Of a DNA stretch of 64,000 nt, positions 3,965-43,513 are shown in pieces. Made by a program: the position numbers and the translations under genes. The first letter of the stretch is position 1. The number at the start of each line of letters is the position of its first letter. The notes under the pieces are model-generated. The model saw only the letters and a list, made by a program, of their open reading frames with translations. It was not told the DNA's origin and made no database searches. This DNA comes from Myxococcales bacterium (lineage in GTDB: Bacteria > Myxococcota_A > Bradymonadia > REDH01): positions 2,703 to 66,702 of the forward strand of contig CANMDT010000004.1 in assembly GCA_947496715.1 (NCBI GenBank). Direction: 5' to 3'.

Positions 3965-4729
3965 TCAGCGAGTGTCGGCGGGCGGTTGTGTGGTGACTTC
4001 GCCCGCGTGGAGGGTGCGGAGGCCATCGGCGGTCCTCACGAGGAGTCCGCCATCCTGCGCGATGCCCTCTGCGGTGCCGGAGGTGGCAGCGTCACCTTCG
4101 CCGAACCAGACCTGCCGGCCGCGGATGGAGTCGAGCTCTGCCCAGCGCGCGAGCAGGCGTTCGGGCGGTGCTGTGGTGAGCGCTTCGGCGGCGGCGACGA
4201 TGGCGTCGCGGAGCGCCGCGGCGAGGCCGTCGAGGTCGGCTTCGGTGCGGCCTGTTTCGAGGAAGAGGGAGGTGGCGCGCCCGGCGAGCTCTGCACCAAG
4301 TTCGCCTTCGTCGGCGTTGATGTTGAGACCAATCCCGATGACGACGCCGGCAAAGCGACCTCCATTGGTGACCCCCTCACAGAGGATGCCGCCGCACTTT
4401 CGCCTGCCGAAGACCAGATCGTTGGGCCACTTTAGGCCGACCGGGGCATCGTAGCGGTCGCGGAGGAGGTCAGCACAGGCGACGCCTGCGGCGAGGGGGA
4501 TGCGGGGCGCGAGTGCGAACCACTCCGGGCCGGCGAGCACGACCGAGAGGGTGAGGCCGGAGTCGGGCGGCGCCGTCCAACTCCGTCCGAGCCGTCCGCG
4601 CCCCGCGGTCTGACTGCGGGCCCGGAGCGCCCGCCCGTGGAGGCAGCCCGCGCGGAGCCACTCCGCTGCGATGCGGTTGGTGCTGTCGACCTCGTCCCAG
4701 CACTCCACAGGGGGGAGCGGCCTGGTCAT
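3965..4729 (-). CDS. birA: biotin--[acetyl-CoA-carboxylase] ligase (no N-terminal HTH, group I)
   Basis: GRGRLGRSW and KWPNDL motifs. ATGA overlap with the upstream nadC stop. Confidence 0.8.
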
Positions 4730-8438: not shown

Positions 8439-10571
8439 CTAGTTGGGGTGGCAGCCGTCGCCGCCACAGAGGTCGACAATCTCGCCTGTACGGAAGAAGG
8501 TGTCCATCTGTTCGTTGTGGAGGTCGAAGGCACGCGGCTTTCCGTGCGGGTCGCCGTTGACGGCGTCGGTCTCCGGAGGATGGTTGCCTGGCGTCGGCCA
8601 TTCGTTGCCGAAGTCCCAGAGGACAATGCCGCTACCTGCGCGTGGGTAGGCAGCCTCGGTCGCCAGCGAGACGGTGCGCTCGTCGTCGTAGTTGGCCATG
8701 ATCGGGATGCCGATCTCGGTGCGGGCCACCACCTCCATCGTGATCGGAGAGACGAGATAGTCGCCCTTGGCAGGGCCTGCGAGGATCACATGCGGCGGCG
8801 TGCCGGCATAGGGTTGCGCGGTGATGTGGCGGTAGTGGCTGACCGAGTCGGTCGAGTCCCAAAGCAACTGCACCGTGGAGAGCGCTACGGCGACGTTGTT
8901 CGGCGTGCGAAGCGCGCCCTTGAGCGCAACGAAGAACTGGTCGAAGGCGCCCGAACGGTGGAGGAAGGAGGTGAAGTTCTGGCCGGGAACGCCAACATGG
9001 CCGCGCGCAACATCGGTGCTGAGCGCCATGTAGGTGGCTCCGAGGATGCCGCCCTGCGAGATGCCCGAGTAGTACATCTCGCTGTTGTCGACCGTGATGT
9101 TGCGGCTGGTGAAGGGCTCAAAGGCAGGAGCCTGCGTCTTCATGAGCCGGCCGAGCGCGAGGAAGTTCACGATGCCCTGCTGGAGCCGGTCGGTGAGCCA
9201 GACAAAGCGGTTGAGGTCGAAGACCATGAAGTTGGCGCGACCGTAGTCCTCCTCCGCCATGCCGGCCCAGCTGGTCGAGAAGTAGATGAGGTGGTGGTCG
9301 AAGGCGACCTTGTCGATGGCCGGTCCAATGATCTCCGCACCTGAGCCGAAGAGCCCATGGCCGAACTGAACGAGCCGGTTGGGCTTGGCGGGGTCGGGAG
9401 CTCCCACGGCGGAGCGGGGGACGCGGATCCAGATCGGCATCTCCGTGGTGCCGGACGAAGTTACGCGGTCATCAGCATCGCGGCGCAGGATGTAGCCCGT
9501 CACGCCATCGGTGCCCTGGTAGAAGGTCTTCTCTTCGGTGTAGTTCGGGATCTGGAAGGTGCCCTGCATGTCGAAGGCGATGTAGGGGTTCTCCGCCCCG
9601 GAGTAGGCGGTGATCTGCGTCACGGTGAGGGCGCTGGCCGCAGGGTCTGCATCGATGGCGGCCAGCACCTCGTCGCGCATGCGTAGGATGTCGCTGTGCA
9701 TGTTCTCGCCGCTCATGGTGTTGAAGTCCCATGCAAGCGTGAGCGAGGCGCGGTCGATTCCTGCGGCCTCGAGCGGTCCGAAGACCGCCTCGTCGAAGTG
9801 GGCTGCCCGCGCTGCGACGCGATCGTCGCAGTCGATGCGGCCATCGCGAAGCGCAGCGAAGGCCGCCGACACTGCGATGGCTTGGCCGCTCGTGTCGGAG
9901 AGGTTGCGGAAGGCGACGATGTAACGGGTTGCCTCTTCGAGGATCACACCCGGACGCACAAACAGCGTCTTCTTCGCCGGATCGGGGTCCTGCGAATCGA
10001 GCTCGACGAAGTAGGGGACGCGGCTCAGCGAGCCGTCTTCAGCGACCTTGAACCAGAGCAACTTTGCATCGTCCGCGAGAGAAGGGCTGAGGTCGCGCTC
10101 GTCCGCCATACCGGTCGTGTCGAGGTTGGCGAAGCGAACCAGCAGCGGTGTGCCGACGCTGTAGCCGTCGCGGCGCGCGTAGGGGGTTGGGTCGATGTGG
10201 ATGTTCTGGAAGTTCTTGGGCAGGGTTGTCGCACCGAAGGCGAGGCGCTTGCCGGTCGCGCTGGCATCATCATCTGCGAGGTAGAGGTTGGAGGGCCACG
10301 GCATCGCGCAGTGGCCATCGTTGAGCGGGTCGCAATCCGGATTGGCCGCGTCTCCTTCCTGAGGCTCACGTGGGGCGCAGGCCTGCGCGGAGCCGTCACT
10401 GTCGCCCGTATCGGTCGTGGTGTCGGCGGCGCTGCCGCCTGTGTCGGCGCTGGTGTCGGACGAACCGTCTGGCGTCGTATCGGCTTCGGTGGTCGACTGC
10501 TTGCTGTCGTCAGAGCATCCGATGACGAGCAACGGCACGAGAAAAGCGGTCCAACGGGTTTGCAGACGCAT
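8439..10571 (-). CDS. secreted lipoprotein, alpha/beta-hydrolase fold (esterase/lipase-like)
   Basis: Lipobox LLVIGCS, acidic D/T/S linker, nucleophile elbow GISQGG. Confidence 0.8.
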   Translation of the reverse strand: MRLQTRWTAFLVPLLVIGCSDDSKQSTTEADTTPDGSSDTSADTGGSAADTTTDTGDSDGSAQACAPREPQEGDAANPDCDPLNDGHCAMPWPSNLYLADDDASATGKRLAFGATTLPKNFQNIHIDPTPYARRDGYSVGTPLLVRFANLDTTGMADERDLSPSLADDAKLLWFKVAEDGSLSRVPYFVELDSQDPDPAKKTLFVRPGVILEEATRYIVAFRNLSDTSGQAIAVSAAFAALRDGRIDCDDRVAARAAHFDEAVFGPLEAAGIDRASLTLAWDFNTMSGENMHSDILRMRDEVLAAIDADPAASALTVTQITAYSGAENPYIAFDMQGTFQIPNYTEEKTFYQGTDGVTGYILRRDADDRVTSSGTTEMPIWIRVPRSAVGAPDPAKPNRLVQFGHGLFGSGAEIIGPAIDKVAFDHHLIYFSTSWAGMAEEDYGRANFMVFDLNRFVWLTDRLQQGIVNFLALGRLMKTQAPAFEPFTSRNITVDNSEMYYSGISQGGILGATYMALSTDVARGHVGVPGQNFTSFLHRSGAFDQFFVALKGALRTPNNVAVALSTVQLLWDSTDSVSHYRHITAQPYAGTPPHVILAGPAKGDYLVSPITMEVVARTEIGIPIMANYDDERTVSLATEAAYPRAGSGIVLWDFGNEWPTPGNHPPETDAVNGDPHGKPRAFDLHNEQMDTFFRTGEIVDLCGGDGCHPN

Positions 10572-36818: not shown

Positions 36819-37703
36819 CTACGGGAAGGGGCCGCCGGAGCACTCGCCGTCGAGGCAGGACTCCTGATGCAGCCCAACGCTGCCCGCGCCGACAATGACG
36901 TAGGCCGCCGCTGTCGGAGGCGCGGCGCCGCCGCAATAGACAGGTGACCGTGTTGCCACAGCCAAACCAGTAGGCGTGCTGAAGACTCCCTGAACCGTCA
37001 GCGCCGGGTTGTCTGATTGCGTCACCTGGGCCACTACCTCGATGCTCCAGTCGATGTCGGTGATCGCGGTGGCGGGGTCCATGCAGGGGAGCATCGCGCG
37101 GAGCTCTGCCTCGGTCGTGGCAACGGCAAACGAGGTGCCGCTGTCAAAGGTCATCATGCAGCTGTCTGGGGTGGTCCAGAGCCGATAGGGCTGCGCGGTG
37201 GCCGGATCGTAGACTCCGCATGGATCGCAGACCGAGCGCTGCGACGCGGGTGCGATGCCGAGGCAGCCCATGTAGCAGCTGTTGCAGTAGAGGTTTCCGT
37301 CGGTTCCGCAGATCTGGAACTCGGGGGCAGGGCAGCCAACGCCGCAGCCGAACAGGCAGTCATCCACATCCACGTCGGTGTCGTCGACGTTGGTGTCGGC
37401 GGTGTCGTCGACCGTGGTATCGGCGGTGTCATCGACCGTGGTGTCGGCGGTGTCGTCGACGTTGGTGTCGGCGGTGTCGTCGACCGTGGTATCGGCAGTC
37501 TCGTCAACGTTGGTGTCTGCGGTGTCATCAACGTTCGTGTCGGCGGTGTCATCAACCGAGGTGTCGGCGGTGTCATCAACCGAGGTGTCGGCGGTATCCG
37601 AAGCTCCGCTCCCCTCCGTATCACCCGCCGGCAGCTCCACGGTCTCTTCGGCCACACAGGCGGCCAGCGCCAGCATCCAAACACTCAAAACAACTGTGCG
37701 CAT
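36819..37703 (-). CDS. lipoprotein with 10x (DDTADT[SNT]V) acidic tandem repeat and a Kazal-like Cys domain
   Basis: Lipobox LALAAC (ATG 37703). …CPAPEFQICGTDGNLYCNSCYMGC… resembles Kazal PVCG(S/T)DG.TY.N.C. Confidence 0.65.
   Translation of the reverse strand: MRTVVLSVWMLALAACVAEETVELPAGDTEGSGASDTADTSVDDTADTSVDDTADTNVDDTADTNVDETADTTVDDTADTNVDDTADTTVDDTADTTVDDTADTNVDDTDVDVDDCLFGCGVGCPAPEFQICGTDGNLYCNSCYMGCLGIAPASQRSVCDPCGVYDPATAQPYRLWTTPDSCMMTFDSGTSFAVATTEAELRAMLPCMDPATAITDIDWSIEVVAQVTQSDNPALTVQGVFSTPTGLAVATRSPVYCGGAAPPTAAAYVIVGAGSVGLHQESCLDGECSGGPFP
37370..37610 (-). repeat. 24-bp coding tandem repeat x10 (DDTADTxV) inside Kazal-like lipoprotein gene
   Basis: gtcgtcgacgttggtgtcggcggt-type units repeated. 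Confidence 0.8.
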
Positions 37704-37752
37704 CGCAGACCTCCAACTCGTTTCGGAGGTCACTCTCGCCGCCATCATCATC

Positions 37753-38421
37753 TCAGTCAACCACGGTCGGCGCCTCGCCCTCTTGGCCCTTGGTCAGGAT
37801 GCGCATGAAGTCGTTTCGGCTCATCTCCTTGGCACCCAGCGAGGCGAGGTGCTCGTTGTGAACCTGGCAGTCGATCAGGTCGAAACGGCGCTCAAAGAGG
37901 ATCCGCTGCATCTCGAAGAAGGCGAACTTCGAGGCGTCCGACTCCGTGTGAAACATCGACTCGCCCGAGAAGACCTTGCCGGTCGCCAATCCGTAGAGCC
38001 CGCCCACCAGTTTGCCCTCTCGCCAGGTCTCGAAACTGTGGGCAATGCCCTGCTTGTGAAGCTCGGTGTAGACATGCCGGATCTTCGGCGAGATCCAGGT
38101 GCCGGGTTGCCCCTCGCGTGGCACCTTCGAGCACATCTTGATGACCTCCGCGAAGGCCGTGTTGATGCGCAGTTCAAACCTCCCTGAGGTTAGAATCTTT
38201 CGCATGCTCCGCGAGATGTTCGCGCCGCCCGGCCGAAGCACCATGCGCTTCGCCGGCGCGTACCACAGAAGCATGCGGCCCGACGGCCAGGGGAAGATGC
38301 CTTCACGGTAGGCTGCGGCGACGCGGTCTGGGTCGAGGTCGCCACCGAATGCGAGTGTGCCGTCACGGTCGGCTCGGTCGACCGGCGGAAAGATATGTTC
38401 AGGTCCAAGCTGGTATGGCAT
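37753..38421 (-). CDS. aat: leucyl/phenylalanyl-tRNA--protein transferase
   Basis: Full-length L/F-transferase-like sequence (…YREGIFPW…, …WISPKI…, GESMFH). Confidence 0.85.
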   Translation of the reverse strand: MPYQLGPEHIFPPVDRADRDGTLAFGGDLDPDRVAAAYREGIFPWPSGRMLLWYAPAKRMVLRPGGANISRSMRKILTSGRFELRINTAFAEVIKMCSKVPREGQPGTWISPKIRHVYTELHKQGIAHSFETWREGKLVGGLYGLATGKVFSGESMFHTESDASKFAFFEMQRILFERRFDLIDCQVHNEHLASLGAKEMSRNDFMRILTKGQEGEAPTVVD

Positions 38422-38512: not shown

Positions 38513-40573
38513 ATGCAGGCGATGACGATGGGGTCCCCCAATTTGCCCGGTCATGGGCGCGTTTCTACCAACCTCGCATGGCTCGTCGCCGGTCTGCTCC
38601 TGCTCGCGGGCTGTCGATCTTCGTCCGACACGGCAGCTCCCTCCGCTGCGCCAGCCGCGCAGCTCGTAGACCCCACCGCCCGCCCCATCGTTGTGGCACC
38701 ACTCCGCGGCGAGCGCCCTGACAGCTGGATCCGCTCGCTCCCCGAACGGCCGGCCATCGTCCTCGCGGTCGACCTCCGCTCGCTCATGGCTACCGTCATC
38801 GACGGCCCCTGGAACCTGCTCGGCCTCTCTCAGGACCGGTATGCCGGTGCTGTCGCAAAGTGGGTCGGCAAGTTCGACAGCCGCCCCGACCTGGCGAACG
38901 CCGTCAAGCAGCTCCGCTGGGAGGCCGCCTCGACCGTCGTCCTCGCCGCATGGGGCGCAGAGAAGGGCGGGGCAGAGAGCACACTCCTGCTCACCGAGCC
39001 CGCTGCGCTCGACCTCCCGCTCCGCGATGGCGGCCCGCCCGCTTCGCTCACCAACACCCGCTTCCGCGCAGCGCTGCGGGGCGGCCAACTCCTTGTCGGC
39101 GACGGCCCGGCCTTCGAGGCGGCGCTTGCAGTGCATGCCGGTTTCAACCCCGAGGCACGCTGGCCCGAGGGCTGGGCCAAGCTCCCCGCAAAGGCCTTCG
39201 CCACCCTCTGGCTCGACCCCTCCGTCCCCGCACCCAAGTCCCTCGCCGAGCTCCAGAAGGGCCACCAGCTCATCGCCGCCGGCCTCTCCTCCGACGGCAG
39301 CGCGATCCTTCTCCACAGCGCACAGCAGCCCTGGCTTGCACCCGCAACAGCCCGCGGCTTTGAGATGGGGCGTTCGCTCATCGAGTCACAGCGGGTCGAC
39401 GCGACGCCTACCAGCAAGCCCCTCTGGGACTACGCCGACCTCCTCCATCGGGCCATCTGGTCACGCGTCGCGCTCTCCACCGACGGCGGCGTAGAGCAGC
39501 TCCGACTCCTCCCGCCAGCCTGCGGAAATGCCGCAAACAACCTCACCATCGCGGCCATCGTCGCCACCCTCATTCAGCGCTCCTCGCTCGGACCGCTCCC
39601 CGCCGGCCCCTTCGTTACCCCGACTGTCCGACTGCAGGACGACTGCTCCGGCATCGCCGGGCCTGCACCCCGCCTGCCCCGCTCGCTCGTCTCGCTCGCC
39701 TCCGCAGAGACAAAGGGCGGCGCCCTCTTCCTCCTCGCCGACAGTGGCGCGCTGCTTCGAGCTCACCTTCCCAGCCTCTTCGGTCTGCTCCCATTCACCC
39801 TCCACACCGACGAACTCACCCATGCGCTTGGCGCCAACCCCTTCGGCCTCCGCGGCTGGGGCGACAGCGAGGGCTCCGGCGCTTTTTTCATCGAGCAGGC
39901 CACAAATGCCAGCGTCGCCGTTCTCCACCCGGGCGCGGCCGAGCTCCCCTGGGTCAAGTCGCTGACGGCCGGCCTCGACACTGCCACCGACAAGCGTCGC
40001 GGCTGGATTGCAGCCCGCGGCGAACCCTCCATCGCAACGCGGCTCGCAGCCCCGCCCTCGCCGGCCAGCAGCTGGAGCCGCGGCGCTACGCTGCCGCCCG
40101 CCGACGCCCTCCTCGCGCTCATGCTCAACCGCACCTACCTCGCCGCCATCGTCTCCTACGCGGCCCGCCCCGACCTGCAGCAGGCCCTCGCCCGCGCGGA
40201 GGTCGTCGCCTTCTCGCTCCGCGCCGACCTCTCGCCCGTGCTCTCGGTCTGGCTCCCCACGGGCGCAGCCGACGCAGCTTCGCTCCTCCATGACGCCGTC
40301 CAGGAGGGCGTCGCCAAGGCCACGCACAGCGCCGACGAGGAGGGCTCTGCAGGCGCCACCGTCGCCGACGCCCTCAAGCTCGTCACGGTAGAGGCGCTCG
40401 ACGACCACCGCCTCCAGCTCTCGCTCTCGCGCGGAGGCCCCTTCGTCATGGCGGCGGCTGCCATGCTCGCAGCTCCCATCGTCGCAGAGGTCTACGGCCT
40501 GGCAGGCCGCATCAGCGCAGCGGCGGTCGCGCCCAAGGCCGCAAAGCCTCCGGCACCGCCTACCCGCCCCTAG
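38513..40573 (+). CDS. Ala-rich lipoprotein of unknown function
   Basis: Lipobox LLLAGC after ATG 38513 (track start 38357 would overlap aat). High GC3. Confidence 0.6.
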   Translation: MQAMTMGSPNLPGHGRVSTNLAWLVAGLLLLAGCRSSSDTAAPSAAPAAQLVDPTARPIVVAPLRGERPDSWIRSLPERPAIVLAVDLRSLMATVIDGPWNLLGLSQDRYAGAVAKWVGKFDSRPDLANAVKQLRWEAASTVVLAAWGAEKGGAESTLLLTEPAALDLPLRDGGPPASLTNTRFRAALRGGQLLVGDGPAFEAALAVHAGFNPEARWPEGWAKLPAKAFATLWLDPSVPAPKSLAELQKGHQLIAAGLSSDGSAILLHSAQQPWLAPATARGFEMGRSLIESQRVDATPTSKPLWDYADLLHRAIWSRVALSTDGGVEQLRLLPPACGNAANNLTIAAIVATLIQRSSLGPLPAGPFVTPTVRLQDDCSGIAGPAPRLPRSLVSLASAETKGGALFLLADSGALLRAHLPSLFGLLPFTLHTDELTHALGANPFGLRGWGDSEGSGAFFIEQATNASVAVLHPGAAELPWVKSLTAGLDTATDKRRGWIAARGEPSIATRLAAPPSPASSWSRGATLPPADALLALMLNRTYLAAIVSYAARPDLQQALARAEVVAFSLRADLSPVLSVWLPTGAADAASLLHDAVQEGVAKATHSADEEGSAGATVADALKLVTVEALDDHRLQLSLSRGGPFVMAAAAMLAAPIVAEVYGLAGRISAAAVAPKAAKPPAPPTRP

Positions 40574-41910
40574 TTGCCCGAACCGGAACCCTCGCCGCAG
40601 TCTTCAGGCGGCGCCGGGATCTGCTCGGCATCGTTGCAGGCATCGGCGAGGAAGGTGGCCGAGAGGAAGTCGGTCGCCCGCTGGAAGGCAAAGGTCGAGG
40701 GCGCCAGGCTCAGACTGATGGGCTCGCTCGCCTGGCCGGTCACGTTGCCGCAGGCAAAGTTGCTGTCGCGGAAGCTGGCATCCACAAAGTTGATGTCGGC
40801 GAGGATGTCGCGGCCCGTGAGTGAGTTGGCCTCGCCCACGATGCGCAGCCCGGCAACCGTGAGGTTGAAGCTTCGGTCGTCGCCGATGGTCACGCCGGTC
40901 ACCACGATGGCCGCGCCAACGGGCTCCCGCGCCCCGGTCGGCCGCGGGGTGCGGCTGCCGTCGTCGGCGATGATGTCGTCGGTCGCCAGCGGCTGGAAGG
41001 TGAAGGAGTAGTTGCCCGAGCCGTCGGCCGCGACCTCGGTGGAGATCAGCAGCGGGTGTTCATCGCGACGATCGAGCGGAAACACATTCACGCCGAGCAG
41101 GTAGGTGCCAACCGCCTCGAAGGGGGCGGGCGTGCAGCCCTCGCAAATCTCCGCCGGAGCCGGAATCTCTGCTGCGTCGTTGCAGTTGTCGGCCAGGAAG
41201 GTGGCAGAGAGGAAGTCTGTCGTCCGCTGGAAGGCGAAGGTCGAGGGCGCGAGGCTCAGGCTGATGGGCTCGCTGGCCTGTCCGGTCACATCGCCACAGG
41301 CGAAGTTGCTGTCGCGGAAGGTAGCATTGACGAAGTTGATGTCGGCAAGGATGTCGCGGCCGGTGAGCGAGTTGGCCTCGCCCACGACGCGCAGCCCGGC
41401 AACCGTGAGGTTGAAGCTCCGGTCGTCGCCGATGGTCACGCCAGATACCACGATGGCGGTACCAACGGGCGCGCGGGCGCCGGTCGTCCGCGGCGAGCGG
41501 CTGCCGTCGTCGGCGATGATGTCGTCGGTGGCCAGCGGCTGGAAGGTGAAGGTGTAGGAGCCCGAGCCGTCCGCTTCGATCTCTGTCGAGATAAGAAGCG
41601 GATGTTCGTCGCGACGGTCGAGCGGGAAGACATTCACGCCCAGCAGGTAGGTGCCGACGGGATCGAAGGGAGCCGGCGTGCAGGTCACGCCGCTGCCCGA
41701 GCCCGAGCCCGTATCGGCGCCCGTGTCGATGGTCGTATCGCCGTTGCCGCTGTCCTGCGCCGCGTCGGCTGCCGCCGCAGCACGGGCCTCATCGAACTCC
41801 CCAAGCCGCCCCTCAGGGTCGGGCGTCGTACAGCCGGTGAGCGCGCTCACGACGGAGAGCAGCAGCGCAAAGAGGGAAGGAGTCAAAGCAGTCGCAACGC
41901 GCAGATTCAT
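40570..41910 (-). CDS. lipoprotein containing two ~93%-identical 177-aa domains (recent internal tandem duplication)
   Basis: Lipobox SALTGC (ATG 41910). Two copies of CTPAPF..VGTYLLGVNVFPLDRRDEHPLLISTE…FACG.VTGQASEPISLSLAPSTFAFQR.TDFLSATFLAD.CNDA. Confidence 0.7.
   Translation of the reverse strand: MNLRVATALTPSLFALLLSVVSALTGCTTPDPEGRLGEFDEARAAAAADAAQDSGNGDTTIDTGADTGSGSGSGVTCTPAPFDPVGTYLLGVNVFPLDRRDEHPLLISTEIEADGSGSYTFTFQPLATDDIIADDGSRSPRTTGARAPVGTAIVVSGVTIGDDRSFNLTVAGLRVVGEANSLTGRDILADINFVNATFRDSNFACGDVTGQASEPISLSLAPSTFAFQRTTDFLSATFLADNCNDAAEIPAPAEICEGCTPAPFEAVGTYLLGVNVFPLDRRDEHPLLISTEVAADGSGNYSFTFQPLATDDIIADDGSRTPRPTGAREPVGAAIVVTGVTIGDDRSFNLTVAGLRIVGEANSLTGRDILADINFVDASFRDSNFACGNVTGQASEPISLSLAPSTFAFQRATDFLSATFLADACNDAEQIPAPPEDCGEGSGSGN
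40590..41655 (-). repeat. 531-bp direct tandem duplication (2 copies, ~90% nt identity) inside lipoprotein gene
   Basis: Track ORFs 40574..41011 and 41105..41557 translate to near-identical peptides. Real-frame protein shows two 177-aa copies. Confidence 0.8.
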
Positions 41911-42010
41911 GGCATGCCTCGGCGGCGGGTGTATCGCGCTGCATCGCACAGTTCTTGACGAACTGCAAAACAACGCGGAAGGTTCGACCGCTCTTGGAGA
42001 CTCCCGCAAC

Positions 42011-42027
42011 GGGTCTCTGCGAGACCC
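42011..42027 (+). promoter_or_regulatory. perfect 17-bp palindrome GGGTCTCtgcGAGACCC in the divergent intergenic region, 20 nt upstream of FadL-like start
   Basis: Read directly. Same 7+3+7 geometry as the 24103 hairpin. Confidence 0.4.
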
Positions 42028-42046
42028 TCTGTCGCTACGGAACCAC

Positions 42047-43513
42047 ATGACGAACTCCGTCCTCTCTCGCACCCTGGCCTCTATCTCGCTCCTCGGCCTC
42101 GCCGCAGTGGCGCTCCCGCAAACCGCCAGCGCGAGCGGCTTCGCAGTGGCCCGTTTCGGCGGCGCCCACGGCAACCCCGTCGATAGCCACCCCGCCTCCA
42201 TCTACTACAACCCCGCAGGCCTTCTCGGGCAGGCTGGCCAGCGCTATTACCTCGACGTCACCTGGGCCCAGCGCAACGCCACCTACGAGCGCGACCTCGA
42301 CGGCACGGTTCAAGACAATATCCGTGCCGACGACCCCGCGCTCTTGGCCGCCAACGGCGGCACCGGCACCCTCTCCAACCAGGTCATCTCGCCCATGTTC
42401 GGCGCGAGCGGCAACATCAACCCCAACTTCGCCTGGGGCGCCGGCTTCTTCGTCCCGTTCGGTGGTGCCGCCGCCTGGGACAAGGTCGACGCCAACGCCC
42501 CCAACCCCTACCCCGGCGCCATCGACGGCCCGCAGCGCTGGTTCACCATCGACGGCACCCTCAAGACCATCGGTGTCGCTGTCGGCGGCGCCCAGCGCTT
42601 GCCCGCCGCCCACCTCACGCTCGGCCTCTCCGCCAACCTCTACCAGACCTCCATCGACACCCTCCGCGCCCGCGTCTCGGCCAACACGGACGACGTCTAC
42701 AACGAGGGCCGAAGCCGCATCGACGCCAAGGGCATCGACTGGGGTATCGGCGCAGGCCTCATCTGGGAGCCCCGCCCGAACGACCTCTGGGTCGGCCTCA
42801 GCTACCAGTCACGCCCCAACCTCAACGGCGAGATGGTCCTCAACGGCGAGCTCACCAACGTGTTTGGCGACGAGCCCGAGGTGAACAAGGTCATCCTCAC
42901 ATCGACGCTCCCCGACGTCATCCGGCTCGGATTCAAGAAGCGGATCAACGGTCGCGACGAACTCCGCCTCTTCGGCGACTTCACCCGCTGGAGCACCTTC
43001 GACCAGCAGTGCCTGGTCAACGAAGATGTCCTCGATGGCGCCGACCCCTTCAAGTTCTGCGCCACCAACCCTGACGGCTCGGCTGTCAACCCGGCGAACG
43101 AGCCACGGATCGCCGTCAACCTCTTCCGCCGATGGGAAGATGCATGGGGCGTCCGCTCGGGCTACTCCCACTACCTTGCTGACGGCACCGAGCTCTTCGC
43201 CGACCTCGGCTACGATGCCAACGCCGTCCCCGATACCGCCCTCGAGCCCTCGCTCATGGACATGGACAAGGTCAGCGCCGGCCTAGGCGCCACCTTCGCC
43301 CTCATGCCCACGCTCGACATCTCGGTCTCCGCCAACAACATCTTCTACGCCGACCGCTCCACCAAGGCGTCGGACTTCGACGCTCCCACCGACCCGAGCA
43401 AGAGCCCCAATCCCGCGGGCGACTTCGCCCAGAACGTCTTCTTCATCAACGTGGGCCTGCTCTACCACACGGCCCCGACGGTCGCAGCGGCCGTGACGGC
43501 AGAAGACCTCTAA
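42047..43513 (+). CDS. outer-membrane beta-barrel transporter, FadL/OmpP1/TodX-like
   Basis: Signal peptide …ALPQTASA/SGFAVARFGGAHGNP…SIYYNPAGL typical of the family. C-terminal aromatic-rich beta strands. Confidence 0.7.
   Translation: MTNSVLSRTLASISLLGLAAVALPQTASASGFAVARFGGAHGNPVDSHPASIYYNPAGLLGQAGQRYYLDVTWAQRNATYERDLDGTVQDNIRADDPALLAANGGTGTLSNQVISPMFGASGNINPNFAWGAGFFVPFGGAAAWDKVDANAPNPYPGAIDGPQRWFTIDGTLKTIGVAVGGAQRLPAAHLTLGLSANLYQTSIDTLRARVSANTDDVYNEGRSRIDAKGIDWGIGAGLIWEPRPNDLWVGLSYQSRPNLNGEMVLNGELTNVFGDEPEVNKVILTSTLPDVIRLGFKKRINGRDELRLFGDFTRWSTFDQQCLVNEDVLDGADPFKFCATNPDGSAVNPANEPRIAVNLFRRWEDAWGVRSGYSHYLADGTELFADLGYDANAVPDTALEPSLMDMDKVSAGLGATFALMPTLDISVSANNIFYADRSTKASDFDAPTDPSKSPNPAGDFAQNVFFINVGLLYHTAPTVAAAVTAEDL

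Follow-up and report, generated by a model that had tools for sequence, protein, structure and literature searches.

Among described proteins, the calycins (lipocalins, avidins, fatty-acid-binding proteins (FABPs), nitrobindin and the Bacteroides lipid-binding lipoproteins BT_2261/BT_2262) come closest in predicted fold to the product of a lipoprotein gene that we analyzed in 64,000 nucleotides (nt) of DNA from an uncultured, predatory freshwater Myxococcales bacterium of the Bradymonadia (phylum Myxococcota; contig CANMDT010000004.1 of assembly GCA_947496715.1, positions 2,703 to 66,702; this whole stretch is hereafter called the window). The gene, on the minus strand, encodes two tandem copies of a domain with the same predicted ~170-residue, eight-stranded barrel and C-terminal helix, and its product carries a predicted lipid anchor, as bacterial lipocalins do. 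It differs from the calycins in sequence (no Pfam lipocalin model or PDB chain matched it), in an additional predicted β-hairpin between strands 3 and 4, in two disulfide-competent Cys pairs, in a PDPEGRFDEF motif on its tether and in its two-barrel architecture. The lipocalin signature G-x-W is loosely resembled by a G-x-aromatic on the first strand (GTYLL), where Tyr or Phe replaces Trp.

In architecture, the protein recalls bilobed surface lipoproteins built from duplicated barrels, of which TbpB is a known example. Like TbpB and LbpB, it is lipid-anchored and has a long flexible tether, two tandem homologous barrel modules and an adjacently encoded outer-membrane β-barrel as its putative partner. 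Unlike them, it has no handle domains, its putative partner is FadL-like rather than TonB-dependent, and its modules are still 89% identical, whereas the lobes of TbpB are highly diverged; neither its sequence nor its specific fold matches theirs. That neighboring channel matches the FadL/TodX family (PF03349), yet it is not an orthologue of Escherichia coli FadL. As a genetic event, the repeat follows the generic course by which unequal recombination duplicates domains in tandem within bacterial envelope proteins: it is in-frame, spans a whole domain, has a conserved junction and was followed by purifying selection, and deletion hybrids may likewise arise through the longest identical run. 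Only its repeated occurrence is out of the ordinary, a single small family showing it in at least six lineages. We find that the duplication in the window is lineage-specific and of intermediate age, being neither recent nor ancient at the level of the family.

A whole-domain duplication within a lipoprotein gene

A sequence-only reading of this DNA had proposed a recent in-frame tandem duplication of 531 bp (177 residues) inside the gene, with copies about 93% identical in protein and 90% in DNA. The gene does contain an in-frame tandem duplication of a whole domain, but its dimensions are different: the period is 546 nt (182 residues), and the alignable copies, of 178 residues each, are identical at 158/178 amino acids (88.8%) and 461/534 nt (86.3%). 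Seed extension recovered a direct repeat whose two starts lie 546 nt apart, a self-comparison of the protein at an offset of 182 residues aligned residues 77–254 with 259–436 without a gap, and the blastn self-match (E = 0.0) lies far beyond chance. Tandem Repeats Finder gave no match for the repeat, whose 546-nt period exceeds that program's longest period of 500. The longest minus-strand open reading frame (ORF) runs 42201..40570, and the real start of the coding sequence is the ATG at 41910, which has GAGG upstream. The parts of the gene are as follows.

40570..41910, minus strand: lipoprotein coding sequence, 446 amino acids plus stop
41830..41910, minus strand: signal peptide with lipobox L-T-G-C (Cys27); GAGG ribosome-binding site 6 nt upstream of the ATG
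41683..41829, minus strand: tether (residues 28–76), opening with the post-lipobox motif TTPDPEGRLGEFDEA and continuing as an acidic Gly/Ser/Asp/Thr linker
41149..41682, minus strand: repeat copy 1 (residues 77–254), predicted β-barrel domain, four Cys
41137..41148, minus strand: junction between the copies, the four residues ICEG
40603..41136, minus strand: repeat copy 2 (residues 259–436), predicted β-barrel domain; AlphaFold2 (AF2) model of residues 255–446 with a predicted local distance difference test score (pLDDT) of 93.7
40570..40602, minus strand: C-terminal tail DCGEGSGSGN and stop, overlapping the stop of the convergent 681-residue gene by 4 nt

The N-terminus, MNLRVATALTPSLFALLLSVVSALTG-C27, has the form expected of a bacterial lipoprotein processed by Lgt and LspA (lipobox [LVI][ASTVI][GAS]C). 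Each copy has four Cys (in CTPAPF, FACG, NC/AC-NDA and EIC/EDC) rather than the single conserved pair initially described, and across the wider family conservation extends to just two of them, the one in FACG and the one in the C-terminal ADxCNDA motif (NC in copy 1, AC in copy 2). The motif FPLDRRDEHP, also singled out in that reading, does occur in both copies, where the model places it in the loop joining strand 1 to strand 2, and our searches support the view that the domain has no described function.

Copy-to-copy differences fall 15, 6 and 52 times at codon positions 1, 2 and 3. By the Nei–Gojobori method, the window copies differ by 0.51 synonymous substitutions per synonymous site (dS) and 0.058 nonsynonymous substitutions per nonsynonymous site (dN), a dN/dS ratio (ω) of 0.11, and four other strains give similar values. 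Because the differences lie mostly at third positions and ω is so low, both copies are taken to be under purifying selection that maintains them. Very few amino-acid differences are fixed between them, so they look like equivalent working modules rather than one functional and one decaying domain.

A single duplication of intermediate age

A search for homologues returned two classes, two-domain proteins of 439–446 residues (71–100% identity) and one-domain proteins of 248–270 residues (40–91% identity); matches in genome collections were metagenome-assembled genomes (MAGs) labeled Bradymonadia bacterium (Lake Mendota), ‘uncultured delta proteobacterium’ (Lake Erken) and Deltaproteobacteria bacterium. 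We compared the DNA of 15 loci. The two-domain loci are 86.3–95.5% identical to the window in their flanks (4.5–13.7% different) over up to 13 kb, and the flank of the single-domain locus L015 is 21–28% different. The junction, NCNDAAEIPAPAEICEG followed directly by CTPAPFEA, is the same in all two-domain orthologues and in a two-domain paralogue, P0010. Single-domain orthologues occupy the same locus in L015 and L026 (73–78% protein identity), L027 (59%) and L012 (40%, on a 154-kb contig), sharing the synteny of a FadL-family gene, a 681–722-residue gene and aat. Because these same-locus orthologues have one domain, the duplication is not ancient at the family level.

Synonymous divergence orders the events in the same way. 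Between copy 1 and copy 2, dS is 0.47–0.59 in five strains; between the window and other two-domain lineages it is 0.21–0.39 for the FadL and 681-residue genes; and between either copy and the single-domain L015/L026 it is 0.67–0.81, the ordering of these values being more reliable than their magnitudes in a genome rich in G+C at third codon positions (GC3), where Nei–Gojobori (NG86) estimates plateau early. In a nucleotide neighbor-joining (NJ) tree, the first copies of different strains form one clade (52% bootstrap), the second copies another (73%) and the single-domain sequences an outgroup (100%), and a strain’s own two copies paired in 0 of 300 bootstrap replicates. We also looked for gene conversion through the longest identical run and the dispersion of differences, each against codon-shuffle permutations in six strains. 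No strain had an excess of long identical tracts (run-length P = 0.11–0.49), and the differences between the window copies were not clustered (P = 0.39 by run, 0.23 by dispersion).

Taken together, the shared junction, the dS ordering, the tree and the lack of conversion tracts make it very likely that a single duplication took place once the L015/L026 lineage had split off but before the two-domain lineages radiated, with the copies diverging independently since. The tandem duplication would thus have happened once, in a common ancestor of lineages now 5–14% apart in flanking DNA, and both copies would since have diverged under strong purifying selection (dN/dS ~0.1).

Predicted fold and an undescribed lipoprotein family

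From an alignment of 96 sequences, AF2 modeled copy 2 with high confidence (pLDDT 93.7, predicted template modeling score (pTM) 0.88) as eight main strands plus a small hairpin insertion and a short helix at the C-terminus. The top Foldseek matches were lipocalin-type prostaglandin D synthase, nitrobindin and other lipocalins, none at E ≤ 0.001, and on the strength of the model the domain is predicted to be a calycin-like, eight-stranded up-and-down β-barrel. In the tether, a helix is predicted at residues 35–51 by the full-length model, which is itself poor. We rejected the narrower label of lipocalin: neither lipocalin Pfam model (PF00061 or PF08212) matched the whole protein, one copy or 13 relatives at E ≤ 0.1, and the motif of lipocalin structurally conserved region 1 (SCR1), G-x-W on strand A, is replaced here by G-T-Y-L-L and in the family consensus by G-x-Y/F-L-L.

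Exhaustive profile searching gathered 616 cluster representatives at E ≤ 1e-3. The family is undescribed, has no Pfam entry and consists mostly of single-domain lipoproteins from Myxococcota (120 of 146 newly listed representatives have 200–299 residues), its distant members carrying ‘Myxococcales bacterium’ MAG names. The lipobox is a conserved feature of the family, and in most members a conserved motif comes straight after the Cys that is lipidated. The strict pattern C-x(0-2)-P-D-P-E-G-R-F-D-E-F fits at least 75 of 145 complete N-termini (P0054–P0199), many other members have obvious variants of it, and the version in the window protein is CTTPDPEGRLGEFDE; this motif is a possible sorting or partner-binding signal. 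Within the domain, conservation across the family is confined to Gly, Pro, Cys, Gln, Asn and Phe positions (FQPL, G-x-ANP-x-TG, CG), none of them catalytic-looking.

The FadL-type neighbor and the shared intergenic region

The earlier reading correctly placed a divergent FadL-like gene next to the lipoprotein gene. The neighboring features are listed here.

42047..43513, plus strand: FadL/TodX-family outer-membrane channel gene, 488 amino acids (PF03349)
38528..40573, plus strand: convergent predicted lipoprotein (LLAGC), 681 amino acids, no family match
41911..42046, no strand: divergent intergenic region, 136 nt
41939..41986, no strand: 48-nt block, candidate shared promoter/operator, containing CTTGACGA and CAGTTC-N5-GAACTG

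The channel protein scores 75.9 bits against PF03349 (cut-off 29.7; E = 2.8e-21), covering profile positions 9–392 of 421. It is far from FadL proper of the E. coli type (NCBIfam NF007988, 11.7 bits against a cut-off of 585), and phmmer matched it to no PDB chain at E ≤ 0.01. In all orthologous loci, a FadL gene is divergent from the lipoprotein gene, which faces a convergent gene of 681–722 residues and then aat, and the divergent pairing is kept in every one of them, from 100% down to 40% protein identity.

Within the intergenic region, the 48-nt block (CTGCATCGCACAGTTCTTGACGAACTGCAAAACAACGCGGAAGGTTCG, plus strand) is 100% identical across loci whose coding flanks are only 72–86% identical, and its core CTTGACGA is kept even in L027 (59%) and L012 (40%). 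Because the block is invariant while coding DNA differs by 14–28%, it suggests shared regulation and is probably the shared promoter/operator of the divergent pair, although scans of 40400–42200 for consensus sigma-70 promoters and for terminators returned none. A perfect palindrome had been reported between the two genes; there is one, the 8-bp GGCATGCC abutting the start codon, along with two interrupted inverted repeats, but it is weak evidence of anything. The inverted repeats are a 6+5+6 arrangement at 41949–41965 (CAGTTC-N5-GAACTG) and a 7+3+7 arrangement at 42011–42027 (GGGTCTC-TGC-GAGACCC) in the 5′ leader of the FadL gene, which could pair alternatively with the upstream GAGACTCCC. 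The latter hairpin has an uncompensated T>G in one arm in L019, L023, L025 and L007 and is absent from L015 and L026; because it is not conserved across related loci, it is probably not functional.

Several further observations concern the surroundings. The 681-residue gene keeps its syntenic place in all long contigs, among them that of the 40%-identity locus L012 (722 residues), and is under strong constraint (ω 0.08–0.13). At 4023–7758 in L012, the FadL-family gene is followed by a 158-residue ORF and a neutral/alkaline ceramidase (PF04734), a link to lipid metabolism that has no counterpart in the window. L001, otherwise 99.85% identical to the window, has about 128 nt missing within aat, which encodes leucyl/phenylalanyl-tRNA protein transferase (9507–9608 against window ~38175–38404), so that aat is called at 127 rather than 222 residues; this is a strain deletion or an assembly gap. 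Further away, at 36819–37760 on the minus strand, a 313-residue ORF contains 8-residue DDTADT(S/N/T)V tandem repeats and then a Cys-rich tail with weak Kazal-like similarity (E ~0.02). Its repeat region gives self-matches, and the corresponding proteins of related contigs have 273–294 residues, which suggests variation in repeat number.

A possible role in lipid capture

Bradymonabacteria are reported to be without FabB/F and FabI/L, to carry many fadL copies and to depend on exogenous fatty acids, which they are proposed to take from prey (PMC7460792). On the basis of this biology and of the predicted fold class, we tentatively suggest that the barrels are binding sites for a hydrophobic ligand and cooperate with the FadL-family channel. 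The N-terminal lipid and a flexible acidic linker of ~50 residues would tether the protein to a membrane, the barrels would take up a small hydrophobic ligand, and the two partners would act jointly: the lipoprotein might, for instance, pick up fatty acids or lipids and hand them on to the channel, and with another barrel it might have twice the capture sites or a longer reach. Such capture would fit a clade reported to be without complete fatty-acid synthesis and rich in fadL. A literature search for a partnership between FadL and a lipocalin-like lipoprotein found nothing relevant (Treponema outer-membrane protein papers only), and we know of no FadL system with a dedicated barrel-lipoprotein partner.

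We hold the evolutionary and functional account as a whole, a single intermediate-age duplication of a ligand-binding barrel that serves a FadL-type channel, with moderate confidence, and several points weigh against it. The bootstrap values of the copy-1 and copy-2 clades are only moderate. NG86 dS values are compressed by the strong GC3 bias (0.67 even to the distant L012), which makes relative ages approximate. Searches of Pfam, NCBIfam and PDB sequences with the protein, one copy, relatives and the family profile gave no meaningful match, and the full-length AF2 model, from 15 sequences, is poor (pLDDT 61.5). On the functional side, adjacency to the FadL gene was checked in about 5 distinct lineages and is divergent rather than operonic, and no FadL gene accompanies the two-domain paralogue P0010 at its locus.

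One could extend the proposal to the family at large, whose members would be devoted to capturing substrates for FadL-type channels, in the manner of SusD but for hydrophobic nutrients, and with which predatory, fatty-acid-auxotrophic Bradymonadia would harvest prey lipids. The number of barrels (1, 2 or 3) would then be tuned by repeated tandem duplication, possibly with recombinational deletion within populations. We regard this wider version as speculative.

The main functional alternative concerns the direction of the partnership: the FadL-like barrel, rather than being a nutrient channel, could be a dedicated translocon or anchor that exposes or holds the lipoprotein at the surface (compare PorV/PorP of type IX secretion, and Slam), with the lipoprotein acting as an adhesin, receptor or prey-contact protein. 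The neighbor does have sub-threshold similarity to the PorP/SprF models (TIGR03519, 22.9 bits against a cut-off of 90.55, E = 5.1e-5; PF11751, 17.4 against 22.3, E = 0.0033), the motif directly after the lipidated Cys is strongly conserved and possibly a sorting signal, and this position is the site of export or sorting signals in other phyla; the precedent of TbpB would suit such a role as well. Toluene_X/FadL is nonetheless the best and only above-threshold family for the neighbor, the surroundings of the loci examined contained no component of type IX secretion or of Slam (DUF560), and P0010 exists without an adjacent barrel gene. We consider such a translocon or anchor unlikely.

Alternative histories of the repeat

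The sequence-only reading had taken the similarity of the copies to mean that the duplication is young or that ongoing gene conversion keeps them alike. The copies are, after all, still 86% identical in nucleotides and 89% in amino acids, painting of diagnostic sites reveals some copy-1-type sites in copy 2 of the window (nt 207–233) and a mixed pattern in L019, and the two domains of P0007 cluster together at the amino-acid level. Youth is contradicted by a dS of ~0.5 between copies in every strain, and by the orthologue check of single against double forms: near orthologues with flanks 86–95% identical all carry two diverged domains at the same junction, so the same two-copy gene is found where flank identity is only 86%. 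Homogenization fares no better, as differences are evenly spread in the window (run test P = 0.39) and copies group by orthology across strains, never with their partner in the same gene. The run-length test was not significant in any of the six strains, nor was the dispersion test in five of them; differences clustered in L019 only (P = 0.011), and there the copies are 86.9% identical in nucleotides, no closer than elsewhere. A young or converted repeat is therefore largely refuted and, in our judgment, improbable.

The reverse possibility is that the two-domain form is ancestral for the family, that single-domain proteins are repeated losses and that concerted evolution mimics recent duplicates. 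Two-domain relatives outside the window clade, P0052 (found with query P0017), P0054, P0055, P0056 and P0067, do have their own two domains as closest relatives (57–73% identity) in an NJ tree that includes single-domain relatives, so that two-domain proteins occur in at least six lineages with the copies within each protein most alike, and about a dozen members of 500–625 residues show one clear domain and, after it, additional repeats that are scarcely recognizable. Yet the linkers of these five proteins are unrelated to one another, and wholly different linkers between two-domain lineages argue for separate events, as does the single-domain length of most listed representatives. The window clade shows no sign of the concerted evolution that ancestry would require, and its copies are less diverged from each other than from the same-locus single-domain outgroup. 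We think ancestral duality as improbable as a young repeat. As judged from these sequences, the barrel has instead been multiplied in tandem many times and at different depths, in at least six lineages including the window clade, which is the youngest tandem duplication among those sampled. The paralogue P0010 (L016 326–1645; also in L017 and L018) shares the junction of the window gene but has a different signal peptide and lies at an unrelated locus; its second barrel has diverged heavily in the C-terminal half (RDILAD replaced by RETPLD, EPI deleted), which suggests relaxed selection or a new function.

Close single-domain forms deserve separate mention, since they make deletion by recombination between copies at least possible, which would also serve an ancestral two-domain form. 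Diagnostic-site painting shows that P0011–13 and five or six further sequences of 262–264 residues join a copy-1 head to a copy-2 tail. L007 equals the two-domain allele L009 with 1 nt mismatch, its crossover lying within a 38-nt run common to both copies, and P0027 equals P0034 with 0 amino-acid mismatches. The flanks of the hybrids nest inside the two-domain clade, those of L007 and L024 being 99.4–100% identical to L009/L023 and L022/L008. We had considered these proteins as ancestral single-domain alleles and rejected this: because their flanks nest in the two-domain clade and they match two-domain alleles exactly, the hybrids are derived. Each occurs on a single contig of 1.1–2.9 kb, whereas the two-domain forms are on long contigs. 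They are either deletions by RecA-mediated unequal crossover or de Bruijn-graph collapses through the longest shared k-mer run; the same pattern is expected from both.

The two-copy gene itself is not an assembly artefact. Independent assemblies of different samples gave 7 contigs, the longest of 66–76 kb, that encode an identical 446-residue protein (P0001); the gene DNA of L005 equals that of the window, and the remaining L001–L006 contigs with the identical protein must differ only synonymously. Dozens of additional contigs, produced by various projects and assemblers, carry variants of 444–446 residues. The longest identical run between the window copies is 33 nt, so short reads place the copies unambiguously. 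Expansion or collapse during assembly would find some encouragement in the metagenomic origin of the window contig and in the close single-domain forms (P0011–13 and P0022–29, each on one contig of ≤2.9 kb and an exact hybrid of two-domain alleles), which show that a collapsed form is produced, by assemblers or by nature, but it is made extremely improbable by the repeated recovery of two copies (MEGAHIT k141, scaffolded and Joint Genome Institute (JGI) assemblies, on contigs up to 76 kb), by 73 differences in 534 sites that make 150-nt reads uniquely placeable, and by an intact frame with its third-position excess.

Implications

Overall, this is an ordinary domain duplication, and the barrel lipoproteins in which it occurred form an undescribed family of some size with a link to FadL-type channels. 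The event is routine, and its value lies in being a clean, datable example in which copy, junction, outgroup and paralogue can all be recovered from metagenomes. The family is the more useful by-product: hundreds of clusters of unannotated lipoproteins with a confident barrel model, which would justify a new entry in domain databases. In a predatory clade, a gene of this family beside a FadL-family channel is a testable candidate for the capture of exogenous lipids.

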